Below are positions 1 through 26,106 of a DNA stretch of 64,000 nt, piece by piece. A program made the translations under genes and the position numbers. How positions within the stretch are numbered: position 1 is the first letter of the stretch; the number at the start of each line of letters is the position of its first letter. The stretch comes from an uncultured delta proteobacterium. GTDB lineage: Bacteria; Desulfobacterota; Syntrophia; Syntrophales; UBA2192. Location: assembly GCA_963802225.1 (NCBI GenBank), contig CAWDHZ010000012.1:69972-133971 (forward strand). The letters run 5' to 3'. A model generated the notes under the pieces. That model was not told the origin of the DNA. It saw only the letters and a list, made by a program, of their open reading frames with translations, and did not search any database.

Positions 1-1316
1 TTTTTCGCCCCCAGGACGACGGCAAAAAGGCCGTCGGTGATCGTGTCCTCCGGGGGACTGGAACGCCGCTCGATCCAGTTTCGAAAGGCCGTGTTGTGCG
101 ACCCCGAGCCGAAGTGGCCATCGAAGTCCAGCTGGACGATCACGTTCCCTTCGACCAGATTCATGTACGGATGCGCACCGTGCGTACCCATGTCGGCAAA
201 CAGCCAGTTACTGCCCACATCGCCCTGCGAATCCTTCGAGTAATTATAGGCGAACACGTTTCCCGAGCCACCCCCCTCGAGCACCATGGAGTGACGCAGC
301 ACATAGAACATATTGTCCTCGATCCGGTGATCGGAGTTCACGAAGTGAAGCATCACGCCGTAGGCGAAGTCGCCGGGATAGTTCCCCCAACCGTGGTGGA
401 GGTAGCTCTGCCGAACCTCGTTTCCGTAGCTGTTTCGGATGCTGACGTGGTGGTTCCGGATCTTGTAGGTCTCCACGTTCCGGATCCAGCAATGCGCGCA
501 GTGGGTGATCTGGATGCCGTGGCGTGTTCCGCTGCCCGCCTGCGTCATCTCCATGGAAAGATCCTCGATCCCCACCCGGTCCACCATGCCCAATTTCAGC
601 GCTTCAGGATTCAGGGATGCTTTGAACGTAAAATACAGGGGTCGGCTCAGCGTCAGGGTGTCTCCGTTTCTGGCGGCGATCCGGGCGATCTGAGTCATGG
701 CGTGATTGCTGTCGTCAAAGAGTCCGCACCACGTACAGGTCCCGCCGCAGCCGGTCGGATCCACGGGAATACTGGGGTCATTGTCCTGGTAGATGACGAT
801 GTAGTCCCCCACGGACAGGGAAGACACATCCTGTACGGTGATCGTCGAGCTGTCCTTGGTGTAGCCAGAGAGGATTCGCGTCGGGGCCGAGCTCGCCCCA
901 GCGCCATCCACGGCCAGGATATGGCCGCTGGCCGAGACGTTTCTCAGGGTTGTGTTCCGCTGCCCGTCGCCCCGCAGGACAATGGATTTGGCGGCGATCT
1001 GCAGCGGGGCCGTCAGCCTGTACGTCCCAGCCGGAAGATAGACAACCTGCCCCGAGGGACAGCTGTCGATGGCGCGCTGGACGGCCACCGTGTCGTCGGT
1101 GATCCCGTCGCCTTTGGCCAGATAGGGGGCATTTTTGACGTTGGCGCAGACGGTCGTGCGCTGCGGGATCCCCCCGGGAATCCCCGGACTCCATGAAATG
1201 CGACGGTCGGTCGGAATGAGTTGAGCGTGAGTCGAAGGAATGCAGAAGAAGAGGGCGGCGCAGAGGAAGGAAGAGATCAGGATACCGGAGATTTCCTGGA
1301 AGGCCCTGTGATCCAT
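1..1316 (-). CDS. Secreted right-handed beta-helix (pectate-lyase-superfamily-like) protein, paralog A; 3' end runs off the window
   Basis: Absent from the ORF track because it has no stop inside the window. Manual reverse translation from ATG 1316 is uninterrupted: [49 protein letters not shown]...DDTVAVQRAIDSCPSGQVVYLPAGTYRL...[26 protein letters not shown]. About 80% amino-acid identity by eye to the N-terminal 440 aa of the next gene. Confidence 0.8.
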   Translation of the reverse strand, partial: MDHRAFQEISGILISSFLCAALFFCIPSTHAQLIPTDRRISWSPGIPGGIPQRTTVCANVKNAPYLAKGDGITDDTVAVQRAIDSCPSGQVVYLPAGTYRLTAPLQIAAKSIVLRGDGQRNTTLRNVSASGHILAVDGAGASSAPTRILSGYTKDSSTITVQDVSSLSVGDYIVIYQDNDPSIPVDPTGCGGTCTWCGLFDDSNHAMTQIARIAARNGDTLTLSRPLYFTFKASLNPEALKLGMVDRVGIEDLSMEMTQAGSGTRHGIQITHCAHCWIRNVETYKIRNHHVSIRNSYGNEVRQSYLHHGWGNYPGDFAYGVMLHFVNSDHRIEDNMFYVLRHSMVLEGGGSGNVFAYNYSKDSQGDVGSNWLFADMGTHGAHPYMNLVEGNVIVQLDFDGHFGSGSHNTAFRNWIERRSSPPEDTITDGLFAVVLGAK

Positions 1317-1554: not shown

Positions 1555-3660
1555 TTATGCCGCTTTTGTCGGGGCGTTGCTGCGACGGATCCGCGCAACA
1601 GCGATGATCCCGACCGATAAAGCGGCCAGAATCCCGATCGTCGTCATCATGCCGATGCTCAACGTCAGGTAACAGACCCCCACGACTGGCAGCAAACTCC
1701 ATCTCACGAGTCCTCGCAGACTCTCATGCTTCGCGATGAATTCCGCTACGGCCGGAGAGCATTGCTCGTAGAGTGTGACCAGGGCCTGACCGGGTCGATG
1801 ACTTAAAAGATAACGATCCCGGAATTCGCGAAGCACGTTCACTTCCGGCTCCAGGGACGAACCGTATGCCGCGCCGGCGATGAAGCAACCTCCGCGCCCC
1901 CCTCCCCCGCCGGGAGTAACAGGCGGAGACGCCATGGAGGCGGGCCCCGGAGACGGCACGAGCTGGGTCATGGATTCGAAGCGCTGCCGGGCCGGGATCA
2001 TTCCTACCATGGGCGCCAGGTCCGAACCGATCGCCGGCCAGGGGAGACTGCCGAAAAAGGATGGCCTGGAGGCAAGGTAGTAGGAGGCCGGCAGCGTGCG
2101 GTCCGCAATCGCCGCATCCCATTTCGTTTCGTTCGTGACGTAGTCGAAATTGCCGTGACGAAGCAAGGTCTTCTCCACGTCCGGATCGATGGGGCTCTGG
2201 CTGCTTGCACAGAGATAGCCCAAGTGCCAGATCTCTGCTTTGACAAAGGCCGGGGCTTGGTAGACGCCTGTGCATCCCGGGTGGCAGAGGACATTCCCCA
2301 CGATGTTGTGGTAGCGGTTCTTGGCCCCCAGGACAACGGCAAACAGGGCGTCGGTGATCGTGTCCTCCGGGGGGCTGGATCGCCGCTCGATCCAGTTCCG
2401 GAACGCCGTGTTGTGCGACCCCGAGCCGAAGTGGCCGTCAAAATCCAGTTGAACGATCACATTTCCCTCGAAGAGGTTCATGTAGGGATGAACGCCGTGT
2501 GTCCCCGCGTCGGCAAACAGCCAGTGGTCGCCGATATTGCCCTGAGAATCCTTCGAGTAATTGTAGCCGAAGACGTTTCCCGACCCCCCGCCTTCCAATA
2601 CCATCGCATGCCGCAACACATAGAAGATGTTGTCCTCGATCAGGTGGTCCGAGTTCACGAAGTGCAGCATCACGCCGTAGGCGAAGTCGCCGGGATATTT
2701 CCCCCAGCCATGGTGGAAGTAGCTCTGCCGGACCTCGCTGCCGTAGCTGTTGCGGATGCTCACATGGTGGTTGCGGATCCGGTAAGTCTCCACGTTGCGG
2801 ATCCAGCAGTGCGAGCCATGAGTGATCTCGATGCCGTGGCGCCTGCCGCTGCCCGGCTGCGTCATCTCCATGGAGAGGTCCTCGACCCCTGCACGATCCA
2901 CCATGGACAATTTCATCGCCTCGGGGTTCAGGGTCGGCTTGAACGTATAATATAGTGGGCGGTTCAGCGTCAGCGAGTTGCCGCTCTTGCCCTTGACCCG
3001 AACGATCTGCGTCATGGCGTGGTTGCTGTCATTGTAGAGCCCGCACCACGTGCAGGTGCCGCCGCAGCCGGTCGGGTCCACGGGAAGACTGGGGTCATTG
3101 TCCTGGTAGACCACGAGGTAGTCCCCCGCTGCGATGGAAGAGGCACTCTTGAGCGTGATCTTCGAACTGTCCTTCGTATAGCCGTCGAGGATCCTTACCG
3201 GGAAATGTCGTTCGTTCCTGCTGCCGATGGAAAGGATGTTGCCACTGCCCGCCTCGTTTCGCAGAAGTGTTTTTCGCTGCCCGTCGCCCCGCAGCACGAT
3301 GGATTTGTCGATGATCTGCAGCTCCGACGTCAGGCGGTATATCCCGGCCGGAAGGTAGACGGCTTGGCCGCTCTTACAGCGGTCAATGGCACGCTGGATG
3401 GCCGCCGTGTCGTCGGCGACGCCATTTCCCTTCGCGTGAAAGGGAGCGTCTTTCACATTCGCGCATACGGTTTTGTACTGCGGGATCCCCCCGGGGATAC
3501 CCGGGCTCCATGCGATGCGCCGATCGGACGGGATCAGTTGCGCCTGGGCAGCCGATGTGGCCGCAATCCAGACGACGCCGATAATCGCCGCGGCCAGGAA
3601 TCGGACGCGGCCCGTCGCGCCGCAGCGCTGGATGAACGATAGAACGTGTGTGGCATGCAT
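1555..3660 (-). CDS. Secreted beta-helix (pectate-lyase-superfamily-like) protein, paralog B, with Gly-run + CFI-type C-terminal module and TM anchor
   Basis: ORF track 1555..3855. Start trimmed to ATG 3660 ([41 protein letters not shown], signal-peptide-like), because the upstream Wzy-like gene ends at 3753. [28 protein letters not shown] is typical of pectate-lyase-superfamily beta-helix proteins. C-terminus: [36 protein letters not shown]... followed by a hydrophobic helix and RIRRS. Confidence 0.85.
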
Positions 3661-3752
3661 GATGAAACCCCTTGTGCGTCGGTCCGGATCGTTTGACGTG
3701 CGACTGGCGGGGTTCGCCTCGGGCGACACTCCCCCACCCATCGGGTGCCCCC

Positions 3753-5129
3753 TCACGACGGGCGGCGCTCCACCCCCCCCGGTCCCGACGATCCCGTCGC
3801 AGACACGGATCCGGGCCGCCCGTACTCCATATTGAAAAGAAGAAGCAAAAACCACAGGGGATTGAGCGCTTTGAAGGACGCTTCCGTCATGTTGTACAAC
3901 AGAGCGACGATCAGGAGCGTGATTCGTATTCGTCCGCGATCGTAATTCGTAAACAGCTCCTCCCGGCTCTTGTTATAAAAGGAACCCAGGATCGCGACAA
4001 GAAACATCAGGCCGATCAGCCCGAGATTGAGATAGACCTCCAGCAACCCGTTGTGGGCCTGGTTCGGCCTCCAGTAGTATTCAGACCAGAACCATGCAGC
4101 CCGGTCGCCGAGCCAGAAACTGTCGAATCCGGTGCCGATAAGCGCACTGTTCCTCGTATTGATCAGATCCTCCCAGAATTGGGTTCTCCCCGTAAGGGTC
4201 ATGTCCCGGCCCAAGAGGGACACCACAAAGGGAATGAAGTCCGCCAGCAAGAGGACAACGGTGGCCAGCACCAGGCTCGAGAGACAAAACAGGCCTAGAT
4301 AGTCCGGCCGTCTCCGGACCCAGGAAAATCCCAGGCACGCATAGACCCCGATCCCGACGGCAAAGGTCACCATGGCTGTCGAGCTCCTGGCCAGGATCAA
4401 TAGCCAGACGATCATGACCAGCAGCAGGACATAGACGCTCCCTTCCCGGACTCTTCTCAGCGTGTCCTCTTTCTTGCGGAGGACCTCGCACAGATAGCTG
4501 AACAACAGAACCCCTACAATCACGCAGAGCAGTCCGAGTGTATTCTTGTGTGTCGTGACGCCTCCATAGAATACCTCCCCGGACCAGCGGTGGTACATTC
4601 TGCCGTAGACGGGCATGTACTTGATGAAAACGATGGAGAGGGGCACGAGGATGAAGGCCACTCTCTTGACGACGCTCTTGACCGTCTCGTCCGGGTTCTC
4701 TTCCGTCAGCAGGATGAAGATCATGATGTAGTCGCCCAGCAGCTTGATCCATCGCTTGAGCGCGACATAGGGATAGTCCGCCCAGGTGATGCTCAGGGCA
4801 CAGTAAAAGACGAATGTCATGATCAGAAGGTTGTTGCCGATGAGGGCAAACCACCGCACTCTCCGGATGATCAGGACGATGAGGCCCGCCACGATCAGGG
4901 AAGAGAAGTACAGGCGATCGATCGGGTTGCCTTCCGTAAGATCGTAGGGAACGTCCGCGTGCACCGCTGCCGGGTTGATCCACAGGGACAAGGGCCTGGA
5001 CAGCAGGATCAGAACCCAGAACAAAGGGACCCACGTGGCGATGCGGGGGGAAGCTCCCCTCCGGTAGTCGGCCACAAAGAGTCCGATGATAAACAGGATG
5101 CAGAACGCAAGTGCGATCAGCGGGGACAT
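3753..5129 (-). CDS. O-antigen ligase / Wzy-like polysaccharide polymerase family membrane protein
   Basis: 458 aa with about 10-12 hydrophobic helices. THKNTLG and [16 protein letters not shown] resemble the Wzy_C / O-antigen-ligase loop and helix. Lies within a polysaccharide locus. Confidence 0.75.
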
Positions 5130-5185
5130 GTCGAACGGGATCCCATATCAGCAAACCGGTAGAGCATGAGGGAGTTCGCTTGCGA

Positions 5186-6064
5186 TCAGGCGCCGGGGGG
5201 CTTTTCCTGCTCGCCCTTTCTCGCATACCACTGCTTGCGCAGGTTCTTGAGTTTATTCTTCGTGTTTTCGGGCAGTACGGCCGCCAGACCGTGATGAAGA
5301 CCCAGCCGCAGGGCGACGGCCCCCTTCACGGTCAGGGGCACGTAGTAGCGCGGCAGATCCACCTTTTCGCACCCGTTGTGCCGCTTGAAGTCTCCCAGGC
5401 TGTCGGAGAGCCACTTTCCGTAAAGGAGACAGGGAATGCCTTTCTTATCACACACCTCAATGGCTTTGGCCAGCATGGCATTCTGAGGTGCCTTGTCCCG
5501 GTGCACCACCTTGGATACCATCCCGAAGGGGATGGCGGATACCCCGGTATTGCCGAGTTGGATGAACCCGATCAGTTCCTCTTCGAAATAGGCGCCGATA
5601 AAGTCCGATCGGTGCCGATCCTTCATCAATTCCCGTTTGACGGTCTCGAAATCCTTCCCGTAGTTTTCATAGGGTCTACCCTGCCGGACAGGCGTTTCAT
5701 TGAATATTTCCGTGACGCCCCGTATGAACTCGTCATGGAGATCCACGACCTTGACGAAGACGCCGCTTTTCTCCGCCTTTCTCACGGCCTTTCTGGAACT
5801 TCTCTCGATCTGGTGATTGAACCAGTGCTCGTATCCCTTGAGGGGAATGACCGCAGCCGGGTCCACCTCCCGATAATAAGGAAACAGGGGCTTGGTTTCG
5901 GGCAGCCTTTGCCAGAACGTCAGAAGATCGGCCCTCACGTGCTGCGCTTTCATCTTCCCGATGAAGGCCTCGGGGTCCTCGACATGGTCAAACCATTCGT
6001 CCTTCAGGATCGCGGTCTTGATCCAGGTTCCCTTGACGATGATTTCCTTGTTGTCGATCATCAT
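5186..6064 (-). CDS. GNAT/FemAB-like acyl- or aminoacyl-transferase
   Basis: 292 aa. The C-terminal half (FIGAYFEEELIGFIQLGNTG...HRDKAPQNAMLAKAIEVCDKKGIPCLLYG) looks like a GNAT core. Overall size and context resemble FemAB-related EPS-locus proteins. Confidence 0.5.
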   Translation of the reverse strand: MMIDNKEIIVKGTWIKTAILKDEWFDHVEDPEAFIGKMKAQHVRADLLTFWQRLPETKPLFPYYREVDPAAVIPLKGYEHWFNHQIERSSRKAVRKAEKSGVFVKVVDLHDEFIRGVTEIFNETPVRQGRPYENYGKDFETVKRELMKDRHRSDFIGAYFEEELIGFIQLGNTGVSAIPFGMVSKVVHRDKAPQNAMLAKAIEVCDKKGIPCLLYGKWLSDSLGDFKRHNGCEKVDLPRYYVPLTVKGAVALRLGLHHGLAAVLPENTKNKLKNLRKQWYARKGEQEKPPGA

Positions 6065-6100
6065 CGGATTGCCCTCCGTTGATCCATTGACTGATTCCCT

Positions 6101-7930
6101 TCAGGAAGACCCGCTTCCGTCGATGAAGACCCTGTGGATCATTTCCAGGGTGAGCACCTTGCTGATATCCAGCAGATAGTTGCCTTTCCCCGCGATGTGA
6201 TCCAATACCATCTTTTCGATATACGCGCGGTTCCAGTATGGTCTCTCCAGCGTCCTTCGATCCAGCAGGATCTCCTTCAGGTAGCCCGACAACTCCTTCT
6301 GGAACCAGACGCGGTAGAACAGGAACTTGTCGAACCCCATGACCCAGCGGGACATCTGGAACCGATCCAGCCTCGCCACCCGGTGATGCAGGGAATAGGG
6401 CAGATAGGCCTGAACGAACAGGGTATCGATCCTCAATAAAAATTTATAAAGCGCCCGCCGGGGCATGGCCTGCAGCGGGGAGCCTCCCCCCAGACCCCGG
6501 TTGGTCATGATCCGTGTCAGTTTCGGGTCGTGCTTCAAGATCGTATCCAGCTGAAAGGCTCCAAAGTCGATCTCTTCATCCGGAGCCCGATAAAGCAGCT
6601 CGATAAATTCATTGTCCAGATAGGGGCTGCGAACGGTCAATTGAGAATACTCGGCCGCGGTTGTTCCCGAAAAATACCAGGGAATCTCGTATCCGATCAG
6701 AAAGGACAGGTTGTGGCCTCTGCGGATGTTCCGAAAACGCTCCCTCGATGCGGTAAGGTAGGGCTCCATCTCCCGGCTGACCAGGTTCATGTTCGGCTCC
6801 GCCGGTTTGAGCACATTTGTTCCCCTCACCACCTGGCTGGCAAATTTGCCGGTCATCTTGATCGGGGCGATCTCGCGGACCTTCCGGTTGAAATAGATCT
6901 CGGAGGAATTGTTGACGCGCGCCAGCCCGTCGGTGACGAATACGGCCTTTTCGAACTGCGAAGGAAACTGCGACAGGAGATCCTCTCCTGCGCGGATCAC
7001 CCGGTAGCTCTGGTGACACGTCTCGGCCACCCGCCGGGACACGCGAATGTCGACGGTTTCGCGGTTCATCCCGCCGAAGGTGAAACAGGGAAGCTCACCG
7101 GCAGCCGGCTTGCGGCATGCCAGGATCATCCTGGAATCCAATCCGCCTGTCAGCGCAAGCCCGATCCCGCTGCCGGAAAAATAGCGGGGCAGGACCCTGT
7201 CGAACGTGTCACCCAGCGCATCCAGGTATTCCGCCTTACCCAGTTTCTGCTGATTCTCCAGATCGCGGACCTCGAAGTAACGGTCCTTCGTGACCCTGCC
7301 GTTTGCCCAGGTCCACCGCGAGCCGGGAGGCAGAAGGGAAACACCGGAAAAGTACGTCCTGTTTTCAATGGCGCAGTCAAACAGGAAATAGTCTCCGATG
7401 GTCTGCGGATCCATGGTTCGAAGCCCGGGCAGGACCTTGAGCAGCGACTTCGCCTCGGATGAAAAATAGAATGCCTCGTCGCCTTCGTGGCAGTACAGCC
7501 TCTGCATGCCGTAGCGATCATTGAAAAGAACAACCTGTCCCCGGCGGGTGTCAATGAGTAACCCTGAGAACCATCCGTTCAGCGTCTGCCAGAACTGCTC
7601 TCCCTGCTCTTCATAGAGATGGATCAGGGTGCTGGCGTTTTCCGGATTGAATTCGTGCCCGCGCGCGGAAAGATCCCGCAGGACGCTGCGGTCCAGGTAG
7701 CACTCGCCCGCTAGAAAGAGGACCAAATCCTTTTCTTCATTGCGGACGGGCATGCAGTCGGAAAACGACCCCTGGATGGACACGTGGCCGAGGAAGACGC
7801 CTGACTGCCTGTCGATGTAGGTGCCGGAAGAATAGAACGGCTCGTGGCACATCGTGCGCAGCATGCGCTCCAGGAGCGCCTCTTCGTTTCCGACGATCCG
7901 CTTGCGGATCATTCCCGTGATGCCCGGCAT
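6101..7930 (-). CDS. Asparagine synthetase B-like amidotransferase (EPS-locus type); N-terminal nucleophile Cys absent
   Basis: 609 aa. The synthetase-domain PP-loop LTGGLDSR is present. The N-terminus is MPGITGMIRKR rather than MCGI.G. Confidence 0.8.
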   Translation of the reverse strand: MPGITGMIRKRIVGNEEALLERMLRTMCHEPFYSSGTYIDRQSGVFLGHVSIQGSFSDCMPVRNEEKDLVLFLAGECYLDRSVLRDLSARGHEFNPENASTLIHLYEEQGEQFWQTLNGWFSGLLIDTRRGQVVLFNDRYGMQRLYCHEGDEAFYFSSEAKSLLKVLPGLRTMDPQTIGDYFLFDCAIENRTYFSGVSLLPPGSRWTWANGRVTKDRYFEVRDLENQQKLGKAEYLDALGDTFDRVLPRYFSGSGIGLALTGGLDSRMILACRKPAAGELPCFTFGGMNRETVDIRVSRRVAETCHQSYRVIRAGEDLLSQFPSQFEKAVFVTDGLARVNNSSEIYFNRKVREIAPIKMTGKFASQVVRGTNVLKPAEPNMNLVSREMEPYLTASRERFRNIRRGHNLSFLIGYEIPWYFSGTTAAEYSQLTVRSPYLDNEFIELLYRAPDEEIDFGAFQLDTILKHDPKLTRIMTNRGLGGGSPLQAMPRRALYKFLLRIDTLFVQAYLPYSLHHRVARLDRFQMSRWVMGFDKFLFYRVWFQKELSGYLKEILLDRRTLERPYWNRAYIEKMVLDHIAGKGNYLLDISKVLTLEMIHRVFIDGSGSS

Positions 7931-7939
7931 GTTATCTCG

Positions 7940-9112
7940 CTAATCCGCCATGCGCCTCTCGGCGCACTCCAGTTTCCACTTCAGAAGCGCCAGCGCCCTG
8001 TACATGGTGGTCTGGGCCCAGTGGATCATGGGGATTTTAGATGTGATGAACGGGTACTTTCGGTAATAAAAGTACCCCGTCTCATCCTGCATGTGGTCGA
8101 TGGTCCAGCGGGCCACCTTTTGCGCCAAGGGCAGCACCGATTCATCGAGATCGGAAAAATTGGACAGGGTCTCGATCGCCTGGGCGGCACACTGCATGTC
8201 GATCGGGTACGTCTTGTTGTGGTAGTACTTCGGCGTCCCGTCTGGCTCGAAGAAATGACTGACGTAGTATTTGAGCCCCCGCTCCAGGTTGCCCTGGAAG
8301 GCCTTATCCCCGGTGTTCTCGATGTAGCATTTCAGACTGTCGAGATTGTAGCCCGTGTGGAAATTGTCGATCCACTGCCGGTCCGGCGACTCCCCGTAAT
8401 ACCAGGCGCCGTTTTGGAGCTGGCGGGAGCAGCTGTAGTCCATGGCTTCCCGGGCGACGGCCAGACAGGCCTCGTTGCCCGTGATGCGTGCCGTTCGGGC
8501 CAGTATGGCTGCCCCCAGCATGTTCGAATTGTGGATCGAGCCCTGCATGAAGGCCACGTAGCTCAGGCACGTACCTGAATCGGTCTTTTCGCGGGGCAGC
8601 TCCATGATCCAGTTGCAGACGCTGACCGCTACGTCTAGATATCTCTGCTCCCCGAACTGCTCGTAAGCGTCCAGGAAAGCCTGCCCGACGAGGCCCGTCC
8701 AGACGATGATGGGCTCGAGCCTTGGCAGCTTTCCGCCCCGGCTGGAAAAATCGTAGTGATTTCCCCAGCTATGCCAGGCGTAGCCGGGCGCCTTGTTGCC
8801 GTCGAGCCAGTCGAGGCACCGGATCGCTTTTTCGCGGTATGCCGGATCGCCGGTGCTCTTCAGCATGGTCAGATACCCCCAGGCCATGTAACCCCGTCCT
8901 TTCGTGGATTCCTGGGGTTTGATGCCGAGGAGCGGCCTCAGGTTGACAGGCGATTGGCGCACGAGCTGCTGCAGCATCCTCTCGGCGAGCAGATTGCCGA
9001 ACGTGAGCGGCCGCAGAAAGGAGGACAACCCGTCAAAGGGTTCATACCCCTTGTAGTCGTGATCCTCGATCCACGTTTCCAGTCGACGGATACTTTCCGC
9101 AATGCCGATCAT
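7940..9112 (-). CDS. Conserved hypothetical protein of the polysaccharide locus (possible alpha/alpha-toroid carbohydrate-active fold)
   Basis: 390-aa ORF packed 10 nt after the AsnB-like gene start and 23 nt before the ChbG-like gene. Aromatic-rich motifs (WHSWGNHYDF, NGAWYYGE, NFHTGYN). No family I can name with certainty. Confidence 0.55.
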   Translation of the reverse strand: MIGIAESIRRLETWIEDHDYKGYEPFDGLSSFLRPLTFGNLLAERMLQQLVRQSPVNLRPLLGIKPQESTKGRGYMAWGYLTMLKSTGDPAYREKAIRCLDWLDGNKAPGYAWHSWGNHYDFSSRGGKLPRLEPIIVWTGLVGQAFLDAYEQFGEQRYLDVAVSVCNWIMELPREKTDSGTCLSYVAFMQGSIHNSNMLGAAILARTARITGNEACLAVAREAMDYSCSRQLQNGAWYYGESPDRQWIDNFHTGYNLDSLKCYIENTGDKAFQGNLERGLKYYVSHFFEPDGTPKYYHNKTYPIDMQCAAQAIETLSNFSDLDESVLPLAQKVARWTIDHMQDETGYFYYRKYPFITSKIPMIHWAQTTMYRALALLKWKLECAERRMAD

Positions 9113-9134
9113 CTTCTACACCTGCCTGCGCTTT

Positions 9135-9866
9135 TCACCAATCTGCATGGGCCGCCAAGGTGATTCCTTGGATCAGCTTCCCGTATTCCTCGCTCATCAG
9201 GTAACGGTATTCCTCTTCCCCGTCGGGATGCACGGCCACTTCGACAACCGACGAGCCTGCCAGCTCCATAATTCGTCTAATACGATCGCCGGGCAAGAGG
9301 GGCAGGAGCCGGAAGAAGTAGTCCGTGCAGCGGTGCCTCCTGCAAAGCCAGGCATCCACGGCTTTACGGTAACCGCGGTTGAAGATCGTCCGTTCGCCTG
9401 CAAAGAAGGAATGGTTCCTCCGGACCCGGAGCCCGCGGGGGATGACCCGGTCGATCAACATGTTGGCGCACAGGTGCATGTGGTGATGCCCGTCGATGCG
9501 GGAGGGCGGTTTGCCGTAGAGCCGATCAAACTCCTCCACCTGCCTGAGGTAGGCATATTCAAAATCCGCCCTCAGCGCGGGATGATACACGAGGCGCCTG
9601 AGCCTCTGCGGCCGCAGGAACCCGGCAATCCGCTGGTGGCGCTCCAGCAGCACCGCGTCCCGCACGGTGCCGGTGAAGGGGGTCGTGAAATTCAGGTGCA
9701 GGCCCGCATCGATGCCGAATGCCCGCGCCAGCTCCGCGGCCCTCTCCGCGTCCTCCATGAAGACCATGGCGCTGACGGACGCCGCCCTCCCGTTCCGGAA
9801 GCACGACAGGCTGTTGTCCGTCGCCTCTCTGTTCCGACCCCAGTCGTCGGCGTTAATGATCAGCAT
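9135..9866 (-). CDS. ChbG/HpnK (YdjC) family carbohydrate deacetylase
   Basis: N-terminus MLIINADDWGRN and IDGHHHMH match the YdjC/ChbG metal-binding motifs. 243 aa. Confidence 0.8.
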   Translation of the reverse strand: MLIINADDWGRNREATDNSLSCFRNGRAASVSAMVFMEDAERAAELARAFGIDAGLHLNFTTPFTGTVRDAVLLERHQRIAGFLRPQRLRRLVYHPALRADFEYAYLRQVEEFDRLYGKPPSRIDGHHHMHLCANMLIDRVIPRGLRVRRNHSFFAGERTIFNRGYRKAVDAWLCRRHRCTDYFFRLLPLLPGDRIRRIMELAGSSVVEVAVHPDGEEEYRYLMSEEYGKLIQGITLAAHADW

Positions 9867-9882
9867 GGCACCATAGCGGCCG

Positions 9883-10770
9883 TCAGGATCGAAGGGCCTT
9901 CGAAAGCAAATCTCGAAGCCTTTGCTTCTGCTCTTGGCGATAAAAATCGATTAATTCCTGTGAGACCGGTCTTTCCCTCCGGCATGCCGCGGACGCCACA
10001 TAGCCAAGCAGGGTGAACAGTCCGCCGAACAAATACGGCGGGTTTTTCATCTGGTAAAAGGCCCGCAAGAAAGCCCACAGGGGATGGCTGCCCAGAGAGT
10101 AATCCTCCCTGCCGAGCCTGAACTTGGCCTTCAGCGCATTGCCGTTTGCCGTGCCCATCTTCCGGAGGTGGGTGGCGTTTTTGCCGGTGAAGGTCTGCGT
10201 CCTCCAGCCCCTCATGCGCGCCGTCGTAACGGCCACCCAGTCGATCCCTCCCCCCCTGATCGGCACGTACCCCCCGATGGATTCAAAGCACTCCCTGCGA
10301 AATAGCTGGCAACCGCCGGAGACGTGCTCGATGTTCGAATATCGGTAATCGTACGTCGCCTCCCCCTCGCTGAAGGGAGTTCCAGCCACCCCCAGATCGG
10401 GGTGCAGGGTGAACTGGGCAAGCAGATATTCGAAATATTCGCTGTCGAATGAAAGGTCCGCGTCCAGGTTTCCGATGATGTCGTAATCCAGACCCTTCAC
10501 GATCTCATACCCCGCGTTGAAGGCGCGGACCTTGGAGGCAAAGTTCCGGCCCCCGTTGTTGGGGATGCGGATGAGATGCATCCACGGGTGCTTGCTCGCG
10601 TAGGACGCGACCACGTCGTCCGTCCGGTCGACCGACCCGTCGCTGATGATGACCCATCGTTTCGGCAGGACCGTCTGAGAGACAACCGACAGGATGGTCT
10701 CTTCGATGTAATCCCCCTCGTCCCGGGCGGGCGTGATCAGCACGTATGCGTTAATGGTCTTCGCTTTCAT
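9883..10770 (-). CDS. Family-2 glycosyltransferase (tandem paralog 2)
   Basis: ORF track 9883..10965. Trimmed to ATG 10770 (MKAKTINAYVLITPARDEGDYIEETILSV...ISDGSVDRTDD), because the upstream paralog stops at 10779. IGNLDADL is a DxD-like motif. Confidence 0.85.
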   Translation of the reverse strand: MKAKTINAYVLITPARDEGDYIEETILSVVSQTVLPKRWVIISDGSVDRTDDVVASYASKHPWMHLIRIPNNGGRNFASKVRAFNAGYEIVKGLDYDIIGNLDADLSFDSEYFEYLLAQFTLHPDLGVAGTPFSEGEATYDYRYSNIEHVSGGCQLFRRECFESIGGYVPIRGGGIDWVAVTTARMRGWRTQTFTGKNATHLRKMGTANGNALKAKFRLGREDYSLGSHPLWAFLRAFYQMKNPPYLFGGLFTLLGYVASAACRRERPVSQELIDFYRQEQKQRLRDLLSKALRS

Positions 10771-10778
10771 GCCCCTCG

Positions 10779-11672
10779 TCACACTCCCCTGAACAATTTC
10801 CAGAGCCGCTCCAACTGCTCCTTCCGGTAGAAGTCCGTCAGTTCCTCCGGGATCGGCCGCTCCACGTCCAGCAGGAAGCCCGCCACATAGCCCACAAACA
10901 TGAGCATGCTGCCCAGCACATAGGGTTTGTCCTTGATGTGATAGCACGCCCTCAGAAATTCCCACAGGGGGTGGCTTCCCAGATAATAGTCCTCTTTCCC
11001 GATCCGGTAGCGCGCGGAGAAGATGTTTCCGCCGCCGGTCCCCATCGGCCGATGATGCAGCAGATATTTCTCCGTAAAGGTTCTCGTCTTCCAGCCCTTC
11101 ATGCGAGCGGCCGTCACGGCGACCCAGTCGATCCCGCCTCCCTTGATGGGTGTGTATCCCCCAATGGCCTCAAAACATTCGCGCCGGAACAACTGCAGCA
11201 TTCCCGTAACATGCTCGATATTTGCGTACCGATAGTTGTACTGCCTCCGCGGCACCTCGTAAAAGGGAGGGCCCGCCACTCCCAGGCTCGGGAACTGCGC
11301 AAATTTATCCAGAAGATGCTCCAGCATGTCCTTCTCAAAAGAGAGATCCGCATCGAGATTCCCGATGATGTCATACTCGAGATCCTTCACGCGCGCGTAA
11401 CCGGCATTGAAGGAATGCACCTTGGACGCAAAATTCCGATCCGCCTGAGCGGGCCTCCGAATGAACTCCATCCAGGGTATTTTCTCTGCATAGCTCTTCA
11501 CGATTTCGTCGGTGCGGTCCGTCGAGCCGTCACTGACAATGACCCATTTTACCGGAGGAACTGCCTGAGCGATCATCGATTGGATCGTCAACTCGATATA
11601 CGCTTCCTCGTTCCGGGCCGGTGTAATGAGAACGTACGTCGGCCCGCTCCGCTGCTGGTCCTTTCCCTTCAT
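10779..11672 (-). CDS. Family-2 glycosyltransferase (tandem paralog 1)
   Basis: 297 aa: YVLITPARNEEAYIELTIQSM...VSDGSTDRTDE...IGNLDADLSF. Roughly 55-60% identical by eye to 9883..10770. Confidence 0.85.
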   Translation of the reverse strand: MKGKDQQRSGPTYVLITPARNEEAYIELTIQSMIAQAVPPVKWVIVSDGSTDRTDEIVKSYAEKIPWMEFIRRPAQADRNFASKVHSFNAGYARVKDLEYDIIGNLDADLSFEKDMLEHLLDKFAQFPSLGVAGPPFYEVPRRQYNYRYANIEHVTGMLQLFRRECFEAIGGYTPIKGGGIDWVAVTAARMKGWKTRTFTEKYLLHHRPMGTGGGNIFSARYRIGKEDYYLGSHPLWEFLRACYHIKDKPYVLGSMLMFVGYVAGFLLDVERPIPEELTDFYRKEQLERLWKLFRGV

Positions 11673-11718
11673 GGTCCATCTCCCCTCCGTTCGACAGACG
11701 TTTTCAGGCGATTCCCCA

Positions 11719-12816
11719 TTATCCCGTGCTTTCGGACGACCTGCCGACCTGCGCGAAGATGTCGTCCATCATCCTTGCCGTGAGGAGGATCTCCCGGTAC
11801 GGGATGGGCACCGGCTTGTCCTCCACGATGGAACGGTAAAACGCCTCGATGAGACGCTTCATCCCGGATTTCATGTGAAAATCATTTTTCAGAAACGACA
11901 TCATGTTGAGGATTGAATTCGACCCGTATTGCTTCGCGTAGACCCAGGGGGGGATGAATTTTTCGACATAGCTCTTGAAGCGGGAACCTTTCACCCGGAT
12001 CAGGGTCTGCTGATCATGGTCCATGATCAATGCGTTATGGGGTCCGTAGACCCGGAAGTGGCGAAGCGTGGGGCGCATTTGCGAGGAGAACGTGAAGTAG
12101 GCCGTGCAGCCGCGGCGATCATCGAGGATCACCCGAAGCTCGTCGATGATCTCCGTCTCGCCCATCTCTTTCAAAAAGTCGCTGGTGAATCCGTGCGCCG
12201 TGACGGCGGGGGATTCCCCCTGGAGATATTCCGCAACCCGGGCGAGGCCATGGCTGATGTTGTTCTGCAGCAATTGGCCGGGCAGGCGGCGGACCCAGTG
12301 GCTTCGGTCCCCCAGCAGCGCCCGCGCGTACTGCTGATTGCCGAAATCGTAGCAGTAATAGCTCTCCATGTGAACGGGCGGGCCCCCGAGGTAGCCGCCC
12401 CGGATGAGCTGCCTCATCCGCAGGGCCGCGTGGGAGAACTGTTCGTCGTGGTCCACCGTGATCTTCAGATTTCCCTGTTCCGCACGGCGGATCAGGTCCA
12501 CGGTCTCATCCGCCGTCACGGTGAAGGGCTTTTCCATGAACACGTGGCAACCGGCATCGAGAGCCTGCAGCCCCAGCCCATAATGGCCCTGTGGGGGTGT
12601 GGTGATGTGGACGACGTGGGGTTTAGCCTTTTTCAGCATCTCCTCGAAATCATCGTAGAATCCTTGGATCCTGAATCGATCCGCCAGCTGTTGCGCCATC
12701 AGCGTCTCCCGATCGCACACACCGACAATCGTGCAGCCGGATATCCGCTGAATCTGCGCTGCGTGCTCATCGGCAATCCTGCCGCAGCCGACGATGCCGA
12801 TTCGAAGCTCAGGCAC
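11719..12816 (-). CDS. Gfo/Idh/MocA family NAD(P)-dependent oxidoreductase
   Basis: ORF track 11719..12864. A GTG at 12816 lies 2 nt after the upstream TAA and is preceded by GAGAGAGGGA, giving VPELRIGIVGCGRIADEHA (Rossmann N-terminus). Confidence 0.8.
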   Translation of the reverse strand: MPELRIGIVGCGRIADEHAAQIQRISGCTIVGVCDRETLMAQQLADRFRIQGFYDDFEEMLKKAKPHVVHITTPPQGHYGLGLQALDAGCHVFMEKPFTVTADETVDLIRRAEQGNLKITVDHDEQFSHAALRMRQLIRGGYLGGPPVHMESYYCYDFGNQQYARALLGDRSHWVRRLPGQLLQNNISHGLARVAEYLQGESPAVTAHGFTSDFLKEMGETEIIDELRVILDDRRGCTAYFTFSSQMRPTLRHFRVYGPHNALIMDHDQQTLIRVKGSRFKSYVEKFIPPWVYAKQYGSNSILNMMSFLKNDFHMKSGMKRLIEAFYRSIVEDKPVPIPYREILLTARMMDDIFAQVGRSSESTG

Positions 12817-12817
12817 G

Positions 12818-13903
12818 TTACGTCCCTCTCTCGTGATCAAAATAGTGCCGGGATCCCTCCGCAAACGGCACTCTCGGCTTCCAGCCGAGAAGCCGTTTCA
12901 GCTTCTCGTTCGTGTACCGGTTCCCCTTCCAGTCGCTCGCCCAGCGCCTCCGGTTGAACACGGGAGGCAGCTGCCCCTCGGACCAGCCGGAATACCTTTC
13001 CCAGAGCCAGCACAGGCTATAGCTGAGCGGGCGGGGTATCGGGATCGACCGGAAATTCCTCACATGCCTCTTGTACAGCCTGAGAAATTCCCTGCTCGTG
13101 GGCAGGTCGTCGTCGACCACGTTGAAGATTTCGCCGTCTACCCCTTTTCTCAACCCGGCGAGCACGATTGCCTCGGCGCAATTATCTACATACGTAAACG
13201 GGATCCGGTTGGAACCCCCCAGGTGGAGAAAGACGCCGAAGGTGCCGATGCCCACCCGCTGGGTCAGCCCCCGGTTCCCCGGACCGAAAACCACACCCGG
13301 CCGGACGATCACATACGGAATTCCGCGGCGACGGCAGAGCTCCATCACCTGCTCATCCTGCTTGACCTTGGCATAGCAGTATGCCTCGCCCCTGAGCTCG
13401 GGCTGTTCATCCACGGCGCAGGTCTCATCCAGGACAGCACCGCGCTTTAATTCCAGATTTGAATAGACGGTAAAGGAACTGACGCTGACCAGACGCCGTA
13501 TGGTTTTCTTCTCGGCGCAGGCTTCGACCAGGTTCCGCGTCGATACGACGGAATTCAGAAATGCATCGGGATAGGATTTGACGCCCCGGCCGGCAGCCAG
13601 GTGATAGACAACGGACACTCCCTCGGTGATCGCTCTGCAGTCTTCCCTCGACAGCAGGTTGCCACGGTGGATCTCGATGCCGGCCACACCGGATTTCCGA
13701 ATCACCTCTTCGAGAGCCGTGGATTGTCCCGAGGGACGTGCCAGGCAGACCAGGTTCGTGAACCCGTATTCCGCCAGAATCCGGACCACCTGCGTACCAA
13801 TGAACCCGTTCGCCCCGGTAATCAGGATGCGATCGCGGGGATCGACGATAAAATCGCCAGGCGCCCCTGACGTCTCTTTTCCGGAGGAATTCCCGACCGT
13901 CAT
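12818..13903 (-). CDS. NAD-dependent epimerase/dehydratase (extended SDR)
   Basis: ILITGANGFIGTQVVRIL glycine-rich NAD motif and YCYAKVKQD (YxxxK). 361 aa. Confidence 0.85.
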   Translation of the reverse strand: MTVGNSSGKETSGAPGDFIVDPRDRILITGANGFIGTQVVRILAEYGFTNLVCLARPSGQSTALEEVIRKSGVAGIEIHRGNLLSREDCRAITEGVSVVYHLAAGRGVKSYPDAFLNSVVSTRNLVEACAEKKTIRRLVSVSSFTVYSNLELKRGAVLDETCAVDEQPELRGEAYCYAKVKQDEQVMELCRRRGIPYVIVRPGVVFGPGNRGLTQRVGIGTFGVFLHLGGSNRIPFTYVDNCAEAIVLAGLRKGVDGEIFNVVDDDLPTSREFLRLYKRHVRNFRSIPIPRPLSYSLCWLWERYSGWSEGQLPPVFNRRRWASDWKGNRYTNEKLKRLLGWKPRVPFAEGSRHYFDHERGT

Positions 13904-13904
13904 C

Positions 13905-14795
13905 TCACTCCATCACGTACTTCTGTCCGACCACATCGACTCCCAGGAGAGACAACAGCCGTCCGATGTGGTCGAAATCGCTGATGAGGCATTTCATAAA
14001 TCGGTGGTGCCCCGCCAGGAGGAGGAACGGCAGGGACAGGGTGTAAAAAGGAATAGCAACGACCGACTTTGCATAATCGACAGGCCGGAAATGCGGGATC
14101 TTTCCCCTCACCAGGGCCCGCTTCAGCATGAATGACCGTTTGAAGCGCTCCGGGGGAACCGATTCGTAGACGGGAGCTTCGTTGCACCATTTGAATGTGC
14201 ATCCTTTCCGGATCATGCGCCTGAAGAATTCTCGATCCTCCCCGCCACCGCCGAACTCTTTTCGGAACAGGTTTTCGTCTCCGTCGAAGAGGTCTCTCCG
14301 GATGAGGACATTGCCGGTCCGGGTGTGTGCCCAGTCCAGGACCGTTCCCGTCCCGTGAGAGGGCCTCTCATAAAACCCGCCTTTGATGACCCATGGCGGG
14401 GGCTGCACCTCATAGTGCGGGATCACGGGCCCGAGGATGCCGTCGGCCCCCAGTTGCCGGAATGCCATAAACAGCGTGATGAGCCAGTTTTGCGGCGGGT
14501 ACTCGTCATCGTCGATAAAGGCGAGAAAATCCCCCGTCGCTTTGCGGACGGCCTTGTTCCGGGCCAGGGCGATGTTCTGCTCGGGTTCGGTATCATATTC
14601 AATGGGGACGGCGGTCCGGTCCTTCCACTCCTCCACGGTACGCTTGGCCGACTGTCCCGCGTCGTTGTCCACAACAAGGACCGAGTAGGTAAAGAGCCCT
14701 TCAGTCCTTTGGTCCTGCAGGCGGTTCAGCAGCCTGGCCAAGAGCTGAGGCCTTCTGTACGTGCAGATGCAGACATGGATGTGTTGCGGGGTCAT
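13905..14795 (-). CDS. Family-2 glycosyltransferase
   Basis: HVCICTYRRPQLLARLLNRL...VVDNDAGQSA...FIDDDEYP (DxD). 296 aa. 4-nt overlap with the upstream gene. Confidence 0.85.
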   Translation of the reverse strand: MTPQHIHVCICTYRRPQLLARLLNRLQDQRTEGLFTYSVLVVDNDAGQSAKRTVEEWKDRTAVPIEYDTEPEQNIALARNKAVRKATGDFLAFIDDDEYPPQNWLITLFMAFRQLGADGILGPVIPHYEVQPPPWVIKGGFYERPSHGTGTVLDWAHTRTGNVLIRRDLFDGDENLFRKEFGGGGEDREFFRRMIRKGCTFKWCNEAPVYESVPPERFKRSFMLKRALVRGKIPHFRPVDYAKSVVAIPFYTLSLPFLLLAGHHRFMKCLISDFDHIGRLLSLLGVDVVGQKYVME

Positions 14796-15898
14796 CCTTC
14801 GAACGCCCTGATCGTTTCCGCGATGTACGCTACCTCACGCTCGGTCAGTTCGGGGTACAGGGGTAGTGACAGGATCTCTTTCGATGCCACCGTGGCGCAG
14901 GGATAATCCCGCTCCCGGTGGTTGCAGTAAGCATACGCTTTCAGATTGGGCAACGCAATCGGATAGTGGATGCCCGTGGAGATCCCCTTCGATTGCAGAT
15001 AGGCCTGCAGTTCGCCCCGCCGGTCTTTGGGGGCCCGGATCACATAGAGATGGTAAACCGCCCGGACATCGTTTATCTCGTAAGGGGTCACAAGCCCTGA
15101 ATCGGCCAGGTACCGGTTATAGCTGTATGCGTTCTTTCTTCTCGCCTCCGTCCACCGCGGCAGGTGCTTGAGCTTGACCCCGAGGATGGAGGCCTGGAGG
15201 GCATCGAGACGGCTGTTGATGCCCTCCAGCTCGTGGTCGTACTTGTCGATGCGGCCGTGGTTCGCGAACATCCGTGCCTTCCTGGCGAGGCTGTCATCGT
15301 TTGTGACGATCGCCCCGGCATCCCCGTAGGCTCCGAGATTCTTTCCGGGATAGAAGCTGAAGCAGGCACAATCTCCGATCGAACCTATGGTGCGCCCCTT
15401 GTACTCGGCTCCGTGCGCCTGTGCGGCATCTTCGATCACTTTCAGACCGTGCCTTGCGGCCAAGGCCAGTATGGGGTCCATGTCGGCGGGCTGACCGTAG
15501 AGATGGACGGCAATAACAGCTTTCGTTTTCGGCGTAATCCTCTCCGCGATGCGAACGGCGTCAATGTTGTACGTCCTGGGGTCGACGTCGGCAAAGACCA
15601 CCCTGGCACCCGCCTGGGTAACGGCCTCGGCCGTTGCGATGAAACTGTTGGCCGGCACGATGACCTCGTCGCCTTGCCCGATCCCGAGGCATCTGAGCGC
15701 AATGAAAAGGGCATCGGTGCCGTTGCCGACGCCCACGCAGTGTTTCACGCCGCAGAAGGAGGCAAAGGCCTCCTCGAAGTTCTTGACGTAGGCTCCGCCG
15801 ATGAAGGCTGTCTTCGACAGGACTTCAAAGATGACAGAGTCGATCTCCGTCTTGATCGATTCGTACTGCTTCTTCAAGTCTACGAGCTGGATGTTCAT
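14792..15898 (-). CDS. DegT/DnrJ/EryC1/StrS family PLP aminotransferase (WbpE/WlbC-like)
   Basis: ORF track 14792..16333. Trimmed to ATG 15898 (MNIQLVDLKKQYESIKTEIDSVIFEVLSKTAFIGG), preceded by GAGGAA. The longer ORF overlaps the acetyltransferase gene out of frame. Confidence 0.9.
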   Translation of the reverse strand: MNIQLVDLKKQYESIKTEIDSVIFEVLSKTAFIGGAYVKNFEEAFASFCGVKHCVGVGNGTDALFIALRCLGIGQGDEVIVPANSFIATAEAVTQAGARVVFADVDPRTYNIDAVRIAERITPKTKAVIAVHLYGQPADMDPILALAARHGLKVIEDAAQAHGAEYKGRTIGSIGDCACFSFYPGKNLGAYGDAGAIVTNDDSLARKARMFANHGRIDKYDHELEGINSRLDALQASILGVKLKHLPRWTEARRKNAYSYNRYLADSGLVTPYEINDVRAVYHLYVIRAPKDRRGELQAYLQSKGISTGIHYPIALPNLKAYAYCNHRERDYPCATVASKEILSLPLYPELTEREVAYIAETIRAFEG

Positions 15899-15957
15899 AC
15901 ATTCCTCACGAGATGGGATTCTGGACTCAGATAACGGGGAATCGGGAGAACGCCGGG

Positions 15958-16425
15958 TCAGAGCGTTCGCAGAAGCCGGGCCGGGTTGCCGGCATAGACG
16001 CCCGGCCGGGTGATGTCCTTTGTCACGACGGCGCCTGCACCGATGACGACGCGGTCGCAGATCCTCACGGGCAGGAGGGTCGCATTGGATCCTATCGAAA
16101 CGTGATTGCCGATGTATGTCGATTTCCAGAGATTCGTCCGGCCACGTGCAGGGCCTCCCTCCGAAAACAGGTCGTTGATGAACATCACCCCATGGCCGAT
16201 GACGCAATCCTCCCCGACGCTCACCAGCTCGCAGATGAAGGTGTGGGACTGCACCCGCGTCCGGTTGCCGACGACAACACCCTTCTGGATCTCCACAAAG
16301 GGGCCGATAAAGCAGCCCTCGCCGATTTCGCACTCATAGAGGTTCACGGGTTCGACGACGGTCACGTCGGCACCGAAGCGTACATCGCGGATCTGGCATT
16401 TGAAGACGTTGGTGGGAGCGGACAT
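15958..16425 (-). CDS. Left-handed beta-helix (hexapeptide) N-acetyltransferase (WbpD/WlbB-like)
   Basis: 155 aa with hexapeptide repeats (IGEGCFIGPFVEI, VGEDCVIGHGVMF, IGNHVSIGSNATL, IGAGAVV). Confidence 0.85.
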   Translation of the reverse strand: MSAPTNVFKCQIRDVRFGADVTVVEPVNLYECEIGEGCFIGPFVEIQKGVVVGNRTRVQSHTFICELVSVGEDCVIGHGVMFINDLFSEGGPARGRTNLWKSTYIGNHVSIGSNATLLPVRICDRVVIGAGAVVTKDITRPGVYAGNPARLLRTL

Positions 16426-16460
16426 GCAGACCTCTGAAAATTGCGGGTTCCGGTTTTGCT

Positions 16461-17444: not shown

Positions 17445-17481
17445 GAGACATTCCCCCTTTGCTTTGCCAATCGATCGGGGC

Positions 17482-18660: not shown

Positions 18661-18702
18661 GCCTGTTGCTGTTCCCCTTGATGTGATTGTTCCGTGGAAA
18701 TC

Positions 18703-20936: not shown

Positions 20937-20953
20937 CGGCCTCACTGAATTGT

Positions 20954-24131: not shown

Positions 24132-24195
24132 AAACTTGAGGAAAGTTCCGTTGGAATGACGAATGGCCGAATTAATCTGAATTGAAGAGTGTCTC

Positions 24196-25110: not shown

Positions 25111-25144
25111 GCCAAGGAAATTATTCGCCTGACGAAAGATTTTA

Positions 25145-25876: not shown

Positions 25877-26106
25877 AGAAGGTTCTTATGGGTTTACATT
25901 ACAATAGATGAGTTTTATACACATGGTTAACGAATTGACCGTCGGACCCGGAATGCGTTGTAGTTGGCACCTTTTATTGTGCCTCATGGTAAGGCTTTCC
26001 GGACTGAATATCAAGTTTAATGAATTCAGCAAACATCAGATTGTTCAGGTGTCTTTTGTTACCATTTAAAAACAAATAACTTTTTCCCTGTTAAAAGGAG
26101 GGATCA

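Follow-up and report, generated by a model that had tools for sequence, protein, structure and literature searches.

The 64,000-nucleotide stretch analyzed here (hereafter, the window) corresponds to positions 69,972 to 133,971 of contig CAWDHZ010000012.1 in assembly GCA_963802225.1, from an uncultured Syntrophales bacterium, and contains genes whose products end in a tail of the CFI-box type, composed of a glycine run, a core domain opened by a Cys-Phe-Ile signature, a hydrophobic stretch, and a basic end. The first of these products (carrier 1) is encoded by an open reading frame (ORF) at 1555..3855 of the minus strand, whose probable start is the ATG at 3660, giving a protein of 701 residues with the terminal sequence RIRRS. 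The second (carrier 2) was listed as an ORF at 39306..40901 of the minus strand, and its tail shows the same elements with a spacer between the core and the hydrophobic stretch, ending with RGSRRDGK. The two tails are 47% identical over approximately 118 residues, and both matched the NCBIfam model NF041770 (CFI_box_CTERM; 69 positions, curated cut-off of 40 bits) over its whole length, with E = 9.6e-27 for carrier 1 and E = 2.4e-27 for carrier 2. These values rule out chance or low complexity as the source of the similarity. No Pfam model covered either tail, and a six-frame motif scan of the window found these two copies only. The passengers preceding the tails are unrelated, being a right-handed β-helix of pectate-lyase type (PF12708/PF13229) in carrier 1, and Peptidase_C1 (PF00112) together with BACON and Big_5 in carrier 2. 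Coordinates of all features are compiled in Table 1.

Table 1. Carriers of the CFI-box tail, parts of their tails, and the adjacent gene cluster, in window coordinates
Feature	Position	Strand	Evidence
Carrier 1, exported β-helix protein with PF12708 Pect-lyase_RHGA_epim and PF13229 Beta_helix	1555..3660	-	ORF list, Pfam, NCBIfam
Carrier 1, glycine run GGGGGRGG, linker ahead of the invariant Cys	1888..1911	-	Sequence, motif scan
Carrier 1, CFI-box-CTERM core, 69 residues, ends with SLLPVV	1681..1887	-	NF041770 1-69/69, 92.6 bits
Carrier 1, hydrophobic stretch of 29 residues, predicted membrane anchor	1594..1680	-	Kyte-Doolittle windows of 1.67 and 2.01
Carrier 1, basic C-terminal end of 12 residues, predicted cytoplasmic	1558..1593	-	Sequence
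Carrier 2, papain-family (C1) peptidase with signal peptide, BACON, Big_5, and CFI-box tail	39306..41188	-	Pfam, contig comparison
Carrier 2, glycine run SSGGGGGG	39642..39665	-	Sequence, motif scan
Carrier 2, CFI-box-CTERM core, ends with VLAPVV	39435..39641	-	NF041770 1-69/69, 94.5 bits
Carrier 2, hydrophobic stretch of 19 residues after a 12-residue spacer, predicted membrane helix	39342..39398	-	Sequence
Carrier 2, basic C-terminal end of 11 residues	39309..39341	-	Sequence
Carrier 3, first 438 codons of a paralogous β-helix protein, tail past the window edge	1..1316	-	76% identical to carrier 1
Polysaccharide or O-antigen-like biosynthesis cluster, upstream of carriers 1 and 3	3753..22063	-	Family scans

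A third carrier was recognized at the edge of the window, because all 438 residues of the truncated paralog at 1-1316 are identical to the N-terminus of the database protein P0258 (701 residues), which itself bears the tail. NF041770 matched P0258 at residues 582-650 (89.2 bits, positions 1-69/69), and its C-terminus reads AASGGG-CFIAQAAYGS...LRAFRD..., followed by a hydrophobic stretch and RRAILRR. The Cys-Phe-Ile signature thus opens the domain in all three carriers (CFIAQAAYGS in carrier 3, via P0258), and the end of the domain is located 41-51 residues ahead of the stop in each, that is, at the C-terminus. The three window proteins differ in nothing from the NF041770 family, and they are ordinary new members of an already catalogued family. 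An earlier sequence-only reading of this DNA had described the two tails on unrelated passengers, mentioned a CFI-box model in NCBIfam, and presumed that the truncated paralog carries the tail as well; the analyses agree with it on each of these points. The N-terminus of carrier 1 (MHATHV..., then Q after the cut) was judged by eye to be a Sec signal peptide, and its closest homologs bear names related to GH28 or GH55. The closest named relatives of both passengers are proteins of Syntrophales metagenome-assembled genomes. The hydrophobic stretch of carrier 1 was modeled as a helix (residues 100-123 of the AlphaFold2 tail model), and that of carrier 2 occupies the same position as in its relatives P0001-P0011. 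Separately, a protein encoded in JGI metagenome 3300034126 (P0012; L081, 112-540) is 90% identical to the tail of carrier 1 and lacks nine residues, RGLVRWSLL, of the last core helix, while still possessing the membrane helix and basic end.

A profile built from 12 tails was used to examine the family at large; with a limit of E <= 0.001 it collected 27,808 cluster representatives (50% identity), and with one of E <= 1e-10 it collected 18,867. A survey of carrier loci with one genome per species gave at least 286 loci, the best 80 of which were used for the analyses of hosts and neighbors. The hosts of these 80 loci are Thermodesulfobacteriota (Geobacter, Pelotalea chapellei DSM 13688, Syntrophales, Desulfobacterales, and Desulfobulbaceae), Nitrospirota, Gammaproteobacteria (Acidiferrobacterales, Sulfuricaulis, and Sulfurifustis), Methylomirabilis, Nitrospinaceae, Omnitrophota, and Alphaproteobacteria, including Dongiaceae. 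Several genomes provided more than one of the 80 loci, and some loci hold two or three carriers in tandem (three in L002). The passengers include Peptidase_S8, C25 and M4 peptidases, GDSL esterases, fn3, PKD, DUF11, and BACON, with N-terminal signal peptides visible. Our literature search found no paper mentioning the CFI-box or NF041770.

The layout of the tail was evaluated for 213 complete bacterial tails of this exported class, and it was constant: a glycine run, the 69-residue core, a membrane helix, and an arginine-rich end follow each other in this order. The distance from Cys to the stop has a median of 106 residues, and the 8 residues ahead of Cys contain a median of 6 Gly. A strong 17-residue hydrophobic segment follows the core in 192 of the 213 tails, and most of the others have a weaker segment followed by Arg. 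The net charge past this segment has a median of +4, and was +2 or more in 92% of the tails. The CFI-box was C-terminal in 87/87 genome-encoded carriers, and in approximately 140 of the 150 top representatives. Where it is internal, which is rare, a new signal-peptide-like segment comes directly after it, and such proteins look like fused reading frames. Three such proteins (P0139, P0191, and P0246), which share less than 50% mutual identity, continue after the arginine cluster in frame into a second signal-peptide-like segment and a β-rich domain of approximately 270 residues, with 378 residues after Cys. A comparable layout with 380 residues after Cys was found at L065, but with unrelated fn3 and lectin-like domains; these may be either real fusions or recurrent read-through of adjacent genes.

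The constant layout of the 213 tails on exported hydrolases and adhesin-like passengers argues for a C-terminal membrane anchor of Sec-exported enzymes, with the CFI-box as an autonomous, membrane-proximal helical domain. This is the best reading of the data, though we hold it at about even confidence. The three carriers would be exported via N-terminal Sec signal peptides, with the glycine run acting as a flexible tether between the passenger and the core, and the C-terminal helix with its arginine cluster would most likely work as a stop-transfer anchor. Each enzyme would thus be held on the outer (periplasmic) face of the cytoplasmic membrane, the N-terminus being out and the C-terminus in, with the CFI-box located at the membrane surface. 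That the C-terminus is a localization module was also suggested by distant homologs of the β-helix passenger, whose C-termini are a type A domain of type IX secretion (T9SS; TIGR04183, 23-46 bits), a tail of Cys, membrane helix and Arg, a dockerin-like end, or nothing; since one and the same passenger bears differing C-termini across lineages, the module appears to be exchangeable. The T9SS type A domain occupies the same position as the CFI-box tail on these homologs, but has an unrelated fold and secretion route and no sequence similarity to the CFI-box, so that it is a functional analogue at most. For the C1 peptidase passenger, the homologs had either the CFI-box tail or no anchor, and no alternative sorting signal was found among them.

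The same layout may alternatively be read as a cleavable sorting signal, for which a membrane enzyme encoded elsewhere recognizes the CFI-box, cuts near the glycine run and Cys, perhaps modifies the Cys, and delivers the passenger to the cell surface. Such a scheme would be a counterpart of PEP-CTERM/exosortase, GlyGly-CTERM/rhombosortase, and MYXO-CTERM/myxosortase. The invariant Cys stands at the junction between a variable passenger and a conserved tail, accompanied by the glycine run, the membrane helix, and the arginine cluster, as might be expected of such a signal; the passengers are exported and diverse, one of them bears the T9SS sorting domain in other lineages, and several carriers can occur per genome, partly in tandem (three in or at the window, as in L002). 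The title of the NCBIfam model, in turn, says “domain” and not “sorting domain”. The standard tripartite signals of the LPXTG, PEP-CTERM, GlyGly-CTERM and MYXO-CTERM type, described by Haft, place a short motif directly against the membrane helix (bioRxiv 10.1101/2023.06.07.544157; PMC3237569; PMC11980579). CFI-box tails likewise have an Arg/Lys cluster behind their membrane helix, at the extreme C-terminus, whereas the Cys motif is located approximately 60 residues upstream of the helix, in contrast to the tripartite layout (bioRxiv 10.1101/2023.06.07.544157) and to the resemblance with PEP-CTERM and LPXTG that had been drawn from the sequence.

The known Cys-containing C-terminal signals are closer, as they share with CFI-box tails the invariant Cys, the membrane helix, the arginine-rich end, the exported and varied passengers, and the occurrence of several copies per genome. 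Their motif adjoins the helix (bioRxiv 10.1101/2023.06.07.544157; PMC11980579), whereas a folded 69-residue domain lies between the two in CFI-box tails, which matched none of the models of these signals and had no CPBP protease nearby in the window and none recurring at the 80 loci. GlyGly-CTERM/rhombosortase and PEP-CTERM/exosortase systems resemble the tails in having a glycine-rich stretch and a C-terminal membrane helix with a basic cluster, but the glycine run of GlyGly-CTERM adjoins the membrane helix (PMC3237569, PMC6219818), while that of CFI-box tails is approximately 70 residues away. The window tails matched neither GlyGly-CTERM nor PEP-CTERM models. A further likeness to PEP-CTERM is that one carrier lies in a cluster with genes resembling families associated with PEP-CTERM/XrtA, all below cut-off: the FemAB protein scored 169.6 bits against TIGR03019, whose cut-off is 260 bits, and the matches to TIGR03108 and TIGR04063 were below cut-off as well, with the stp3-like GT4 and the AsnB-like amidotransferase resembling such families. 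Despite these genes, no exosortase and no PEP-CTERM protein was found in the window.

A dedicated enzyme was searched for both in the window and around other carriers. Family scans of the window found no exosortase, rhomboid, CPBP protease, or sortase gene, in agreement with the sequence-only reading, which had seen no candidate processing enzyme there. Wzy_C, MlaE, and two ABC-2 permeases make up the polytopic membrane proteins of the window, and no protease-like gene is among them; a short 94-codon ORF with two hydrophobic windows is unannotated. The neighbors within 10 kb of the carriers at the 80 loci (1,054 ORFs) were clustered, and the commonest non-carrier families, present in no more than 13 of the 80 loci, were generic ones, namely ABC ATPases, histidine kinases, and GT2. 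When 85 polytopic neighbors were surveyed with Pfam, LPG_synthase_TM, ABC-2, ABC_membrane, and MlaE were the top families. No exosortase, rhomboid, CPBP protease, sortase, or other intramembrane protease family recurred in the flanks of the 80 loci, which gives no support to the idea of a dedicated sortase-like partner. The enzymes for known Cys-containing signals, for their part, are mostly not encoded beside their substrates (bioRxiv 10.1101/2023.06.07.544157), so that the absence of a neighboring enzyme would be compatible with a sorting signal. Two small partners without a Pfam match were detected, each restricted to particular carrier subfamilies. A protein of approximately 180 residues is encoded upstream of Geobacter-type carriers (L006-L009, L018, L021, L035, and L062), its stop overlapping the carrier start, and a protein of approximately 260 residues is encoded 9-57 nucleotides upstream of GDSL-esterase carriers (L027, L041, L046, L048, L060, L069, and L078).

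The core was also found in a second setting, on plasmids, phages, and an archaeal plasmid. A search of plasmid records with the consensus core yielded 48 records, many of them annotated as “CFI-box-CTERM domain-containing protein”. Ten plasmid and phage proteins were examined, all of them full-length matches to NF041770 with scores of 67-90 bits. In nine of these ten, only 6-17 residues separate the domain from the stop, so that a membrane helix has no space there, and by eye none of the ten shows a hydrophobic segment of signal type at its N-terminus. In IMG/VR, the domain is rare (9 loci), and seven of these nine are without a membrane helix. The helix-less carriers come from, for example, Burkholderia, Acinetobacter, Rhodanobacter, a Clostridioides phage, and Haloquadratum. 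Their passengers comprise a CspA-like cold-shock domain (CSD) with a zinc ribbon (Burkholderia and Comamonadaceae), TPR on 5-kb Acinetobacter lwoffii plasmids, CAP and RTX repeats in Paracoccus, a zinc ribbon in a Clostridioides phage-plasmid, and Mrr_cat with WYL on plasmid PL47 of Haloquadratum walsbyi, next to a restriction endonuclease gene. The last of these bears out half of a statement in the sequence-only reading, which had mentioned similar tails on archaeal surface proteins: an archaeal carrier does exist, but it is an Mrr/WYL protein and not a surface protein. For the conserved core, these matches to cytoplasmic-type proteins count against the sequence-only reading, which had itself named an occurrence in cytoplasmic proteins as evidence against its proposal. 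The glycine run is missing from the helix-less class, in which M, Q, N, P, R, E, or G precedes the Cys. Since the run is specific to the exported class, it behaves as a linker and not as part of the conserved motif, with which it had been grouped.

The gene contexts of the helix-less proteins provided several additional observations. On conjugative plasmids of Rhodanobacter, Acidovorax, and Denitratisoma (L088, 2809-3773; L091, 156-1090; and L092, 2818-3737), a conserved gene pair encodes a protein of approximately 137 residues, composed of a short N-terminal part and a helix-less CFI-box, which overlaps by 4 nucleotides with the start of the next gene. In L091 this next gene is annotated as a hypothetical protein, and in L088 and L092 its annotation is a PD-(D/E)XK or Dna2/Cas4-like nuclease. 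The pair is located among Fic/VbhA, zeta-toxin, SNF2, and helicase genes. The fusions of CSD, CxxC...CxxC zinc ribbon, and CFI-box are encoded at L082 (3653-4234) and L086 (2608-3249), and their CSD weakly resembles the effector of retron Se72 (40 bits, below cut-off); the Mrr_cat, WYL, and CFI-box fusion of plasmid PL47 is encoded at L084 (3218-4252). The contexts of the CSD and Mrr/WYL fusions look defense-related.

These helix-less proteins weigh heavily on the sorting-signal reading, as they possess an equally conserved core with its Cys on proteins without a signal peptide or membrane helix, which an enzyme of the envelope could not reach; the standard tripartite signals, by comparison, are confined to exported proteins. 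Two findings, namely the conservation of the core with its Cys on apparently cytoplasmic proteins and the gap of approximately 60 residues to the membrane helix, which the standard signals do not have, make a role of the core as a simple envelope sorting tag unlikely. The fuller scheme, with an enzyme encoded elsewhere that cuts near the Cys, is also rather improbable. Of the anchoring or sorting tag proposed in the sequence-only reading, the anchoring part is thus retained, on the evidence of the hydrophobic segment, the positive charge behind it and the exported passengers, while sorting by a dedicated enzyme found no support.

The core itself is an autonomous, mostly cationic, all-helical domain, and is neither the anchor itself nor a classical sorting motif. 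An alignment of 12 sequences from both the anchored and helix-less contexts gave 12 invariant residues: C1, A4, A6, G9, L19, R20, R23, D24, L27, G33, Y40, and P45. The invariance of Cys, which had been pointed out from the two window tails, was observed likewise in alignments A3, A4, A6, and A7, whose sequences from both contexts were either aligned or collected by a Cys-anchored motif. AlphaFold2 predicted an all-helical structure for the 130-residue tail of carrier 1 with a mean pLDDT of 72.9, the block means being 77-89 over the core and membrane helix. Foldseek comparison of this model and that of the core alone with the PDB returned an ESX-5 component and saposin A (E ~9, probability 0.05), which we regarded as noise. 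The net charge of the core has a median of +3 in the anchored class and ranges from +2 to +10 in the helix-less class, and the two window cores are neutral. The last helix of helix-less cores is amphipathic and basic, with a hydrophobic moment of 0.4-0.8. An interpretation of the core charge by the positive-inside rule (neutral when periplasmic, basic when cytoplasmic) was dropped, as the contrast is weak given the median of +3 in the anchored class. From these features of the sequence we infer that the core may mediate membrane-surface association and/or self-association, with the Cys being essential for some role, though the biochemical role of the core is speculative.

Two readings concern the chemistry of the Cys in this core. 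It might attack the preceding peptide bond (N-to-S acyl shift) and thereby, with no separate enzyme involved, free the passenger or pass it to a nucleophile of the envelope. An N-to-S acyl shift occurs at the Gly|Cys-Phe site of Hedgehog/Hint domains, and the G-C-F tripeptide is found at the boundary of the tail; the invariance of Cys in both classes would also fit an intrinsic chemistry that works in any compartment. Hint domains are, however, all-β and approximately 130-150 residues long, unlike the predicted all-helical fold of 69 residues, and no Hint or intein Pfam match was found at E <= 1. The helix-less proteins with M, Q, N, P, R, or E ahead of Cys further indicate that Gly is not required, and no conserved His, Thr, or Asn like those of known self-cleaving modules was apparent, so that self-processing is highly improbable. 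Alternatively, the single Cys together with the conserved Arg, Asp, and Tyr might bind a metal or cofactor, for example bridging subunits, in which case anchoring would be incidental. In favor of this, a very small domain keeps C, R, R, D, and Y unchanged across bacteria, phages, and an archaeon, and it occurs in both the cytoplasm and periplasm; the low confidence of the monomer model would fit a partner-dependent fold. Each chain provides only one Cys, no known metal-binding or cofactor motif was recognized, and there was no family or structural match; a metal or cofactor site is accordingly a quite doubtful proposal.

Several points weigh against the preferred reading of a membrane anchor with a membrane-proximal helical domain. 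The topology and anchoring are inferred, the topology resting on hydropathy and the positive-inside rule. Carrier 1 possesses approximately 36 consecutive mostly hydrophobic residues, so that a hairpin is possible instead of a single span. The all-helical AlphaFold2 model of the core alone is of moderate confidence (pLDDT 67, pTM 0.43), and a profile search of PDB sequences found no relative (best E = 0.6, isochorismate lyase). The basic charge of the helix-less class fits nucleic-acid binding equally well. Furthermore, neither a glycine run conserved at >=90% nor a domain of 69 residues with its invariant Cys would be needed in a plain anchor, so that a further function, possibly processing, is conceivable. 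The invariant Cys at the junction between passenger and tail might then be the site of a covalent step in which the chain is cut, or joined to a lipid or an envelope polymer, whether by an enzyme or autocatalytically; we consider such a step unlikely.

The gene of carrier 2 was found to be longer than the listed ORF, starting from the ATG at 41188 with the signal peptide MRKTRIGVAFLLAASIVFAASLSLA. In the window, this gene spans three frames with single-base insertions at 40900 and 41047. Contigs of four independent soil-metagenome runs were compared, and every contig covering 40900 or 41047 has one base fewer at each site. Once both extra bases are removed, the gene reads as a single ORF of 626 residues, which aligns gap-free with the intact ortholog P0376 at 94.2% identity. 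The insertions are peculiar to this assembly, and mean either that it is in error here or that the strain carries a pseudogene of its own. No contig was found when the exact proteins of carrier 1 (from either of two candidate starts), carrier 2, LeuC, and P0258 were looked up, and the contigs matching Wzy_C all break within the β-helix gene.

The β-helix carriers are the last two genes of the polysaccharide cluster, carrier 1 being the second-last and carrier 3 the last. This cluster encodes Wzy_C, an AsnB-like amidotransferase, YdjC, GT2 and GT4 glycosyltransferases, Gfo/Idh/MocA dehydrogenases, an epimerase, a DegT-type aminotransferase, an acetyltransferase, and a FemAB-family protein. The host is a diderm, as the window encodes OEP (an outer-membrane efflux protein), Mla, and ABC-2/HlyD genes. 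With the tail acting as an anchor in the cytoplasmic membrane, the two β-helix paralogs would place a polysaccharide-active enzyme beside the export machinery of the adjacent cluster. A separate feature of the window is a low-GC island at approximately 22000-27500, with a GC content of 43-49% against 57-65% in the flanks, and with ORFs whose GC content at third codon positions is 0.44-0.60 against 0.75-0.85 elsewhere. On the plus strand it encodes a proline-iminopeptidase-like α/β hydrolase at 24181-25110 and, at 26095-27339, an aldo-keto reductase bearing ferredoxin-like motifs, and the island may have been acquired horizontally.

The CFI-box tail is among the more abundant uncharacterized C-terminal modules. 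Its anchored class comprises protein clusters in the tens of thousands, found in Thermodesulfobacteriota, Nitrospirota, and Gammaproteobacteria, among other groups. In anaerobes of environmental importance and in lineages related to nitrifiers, the tail is borne by proteases, esterases, and enzymes acting on polysaccharides. The occurrence of the core in two settings with the same invariant residues, namely exported beside a membrane helix and helix-less in apparently cytoplasmic proteins, constrains any mechanism. If a covalent step does take place at the Cys, the proteins of the anchored class would be the substrates of a surface-attachment pathway that has yet to be described, and within the cell the helix-less proteins of plasmids and phages would put the same chemistry to use again. 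Whether the tail is a static anchor, a processed signal, or a self-associating module would tell where the exoenzymes of these organisms act, and the CFI-box tail could serve as a portable tethering tag.

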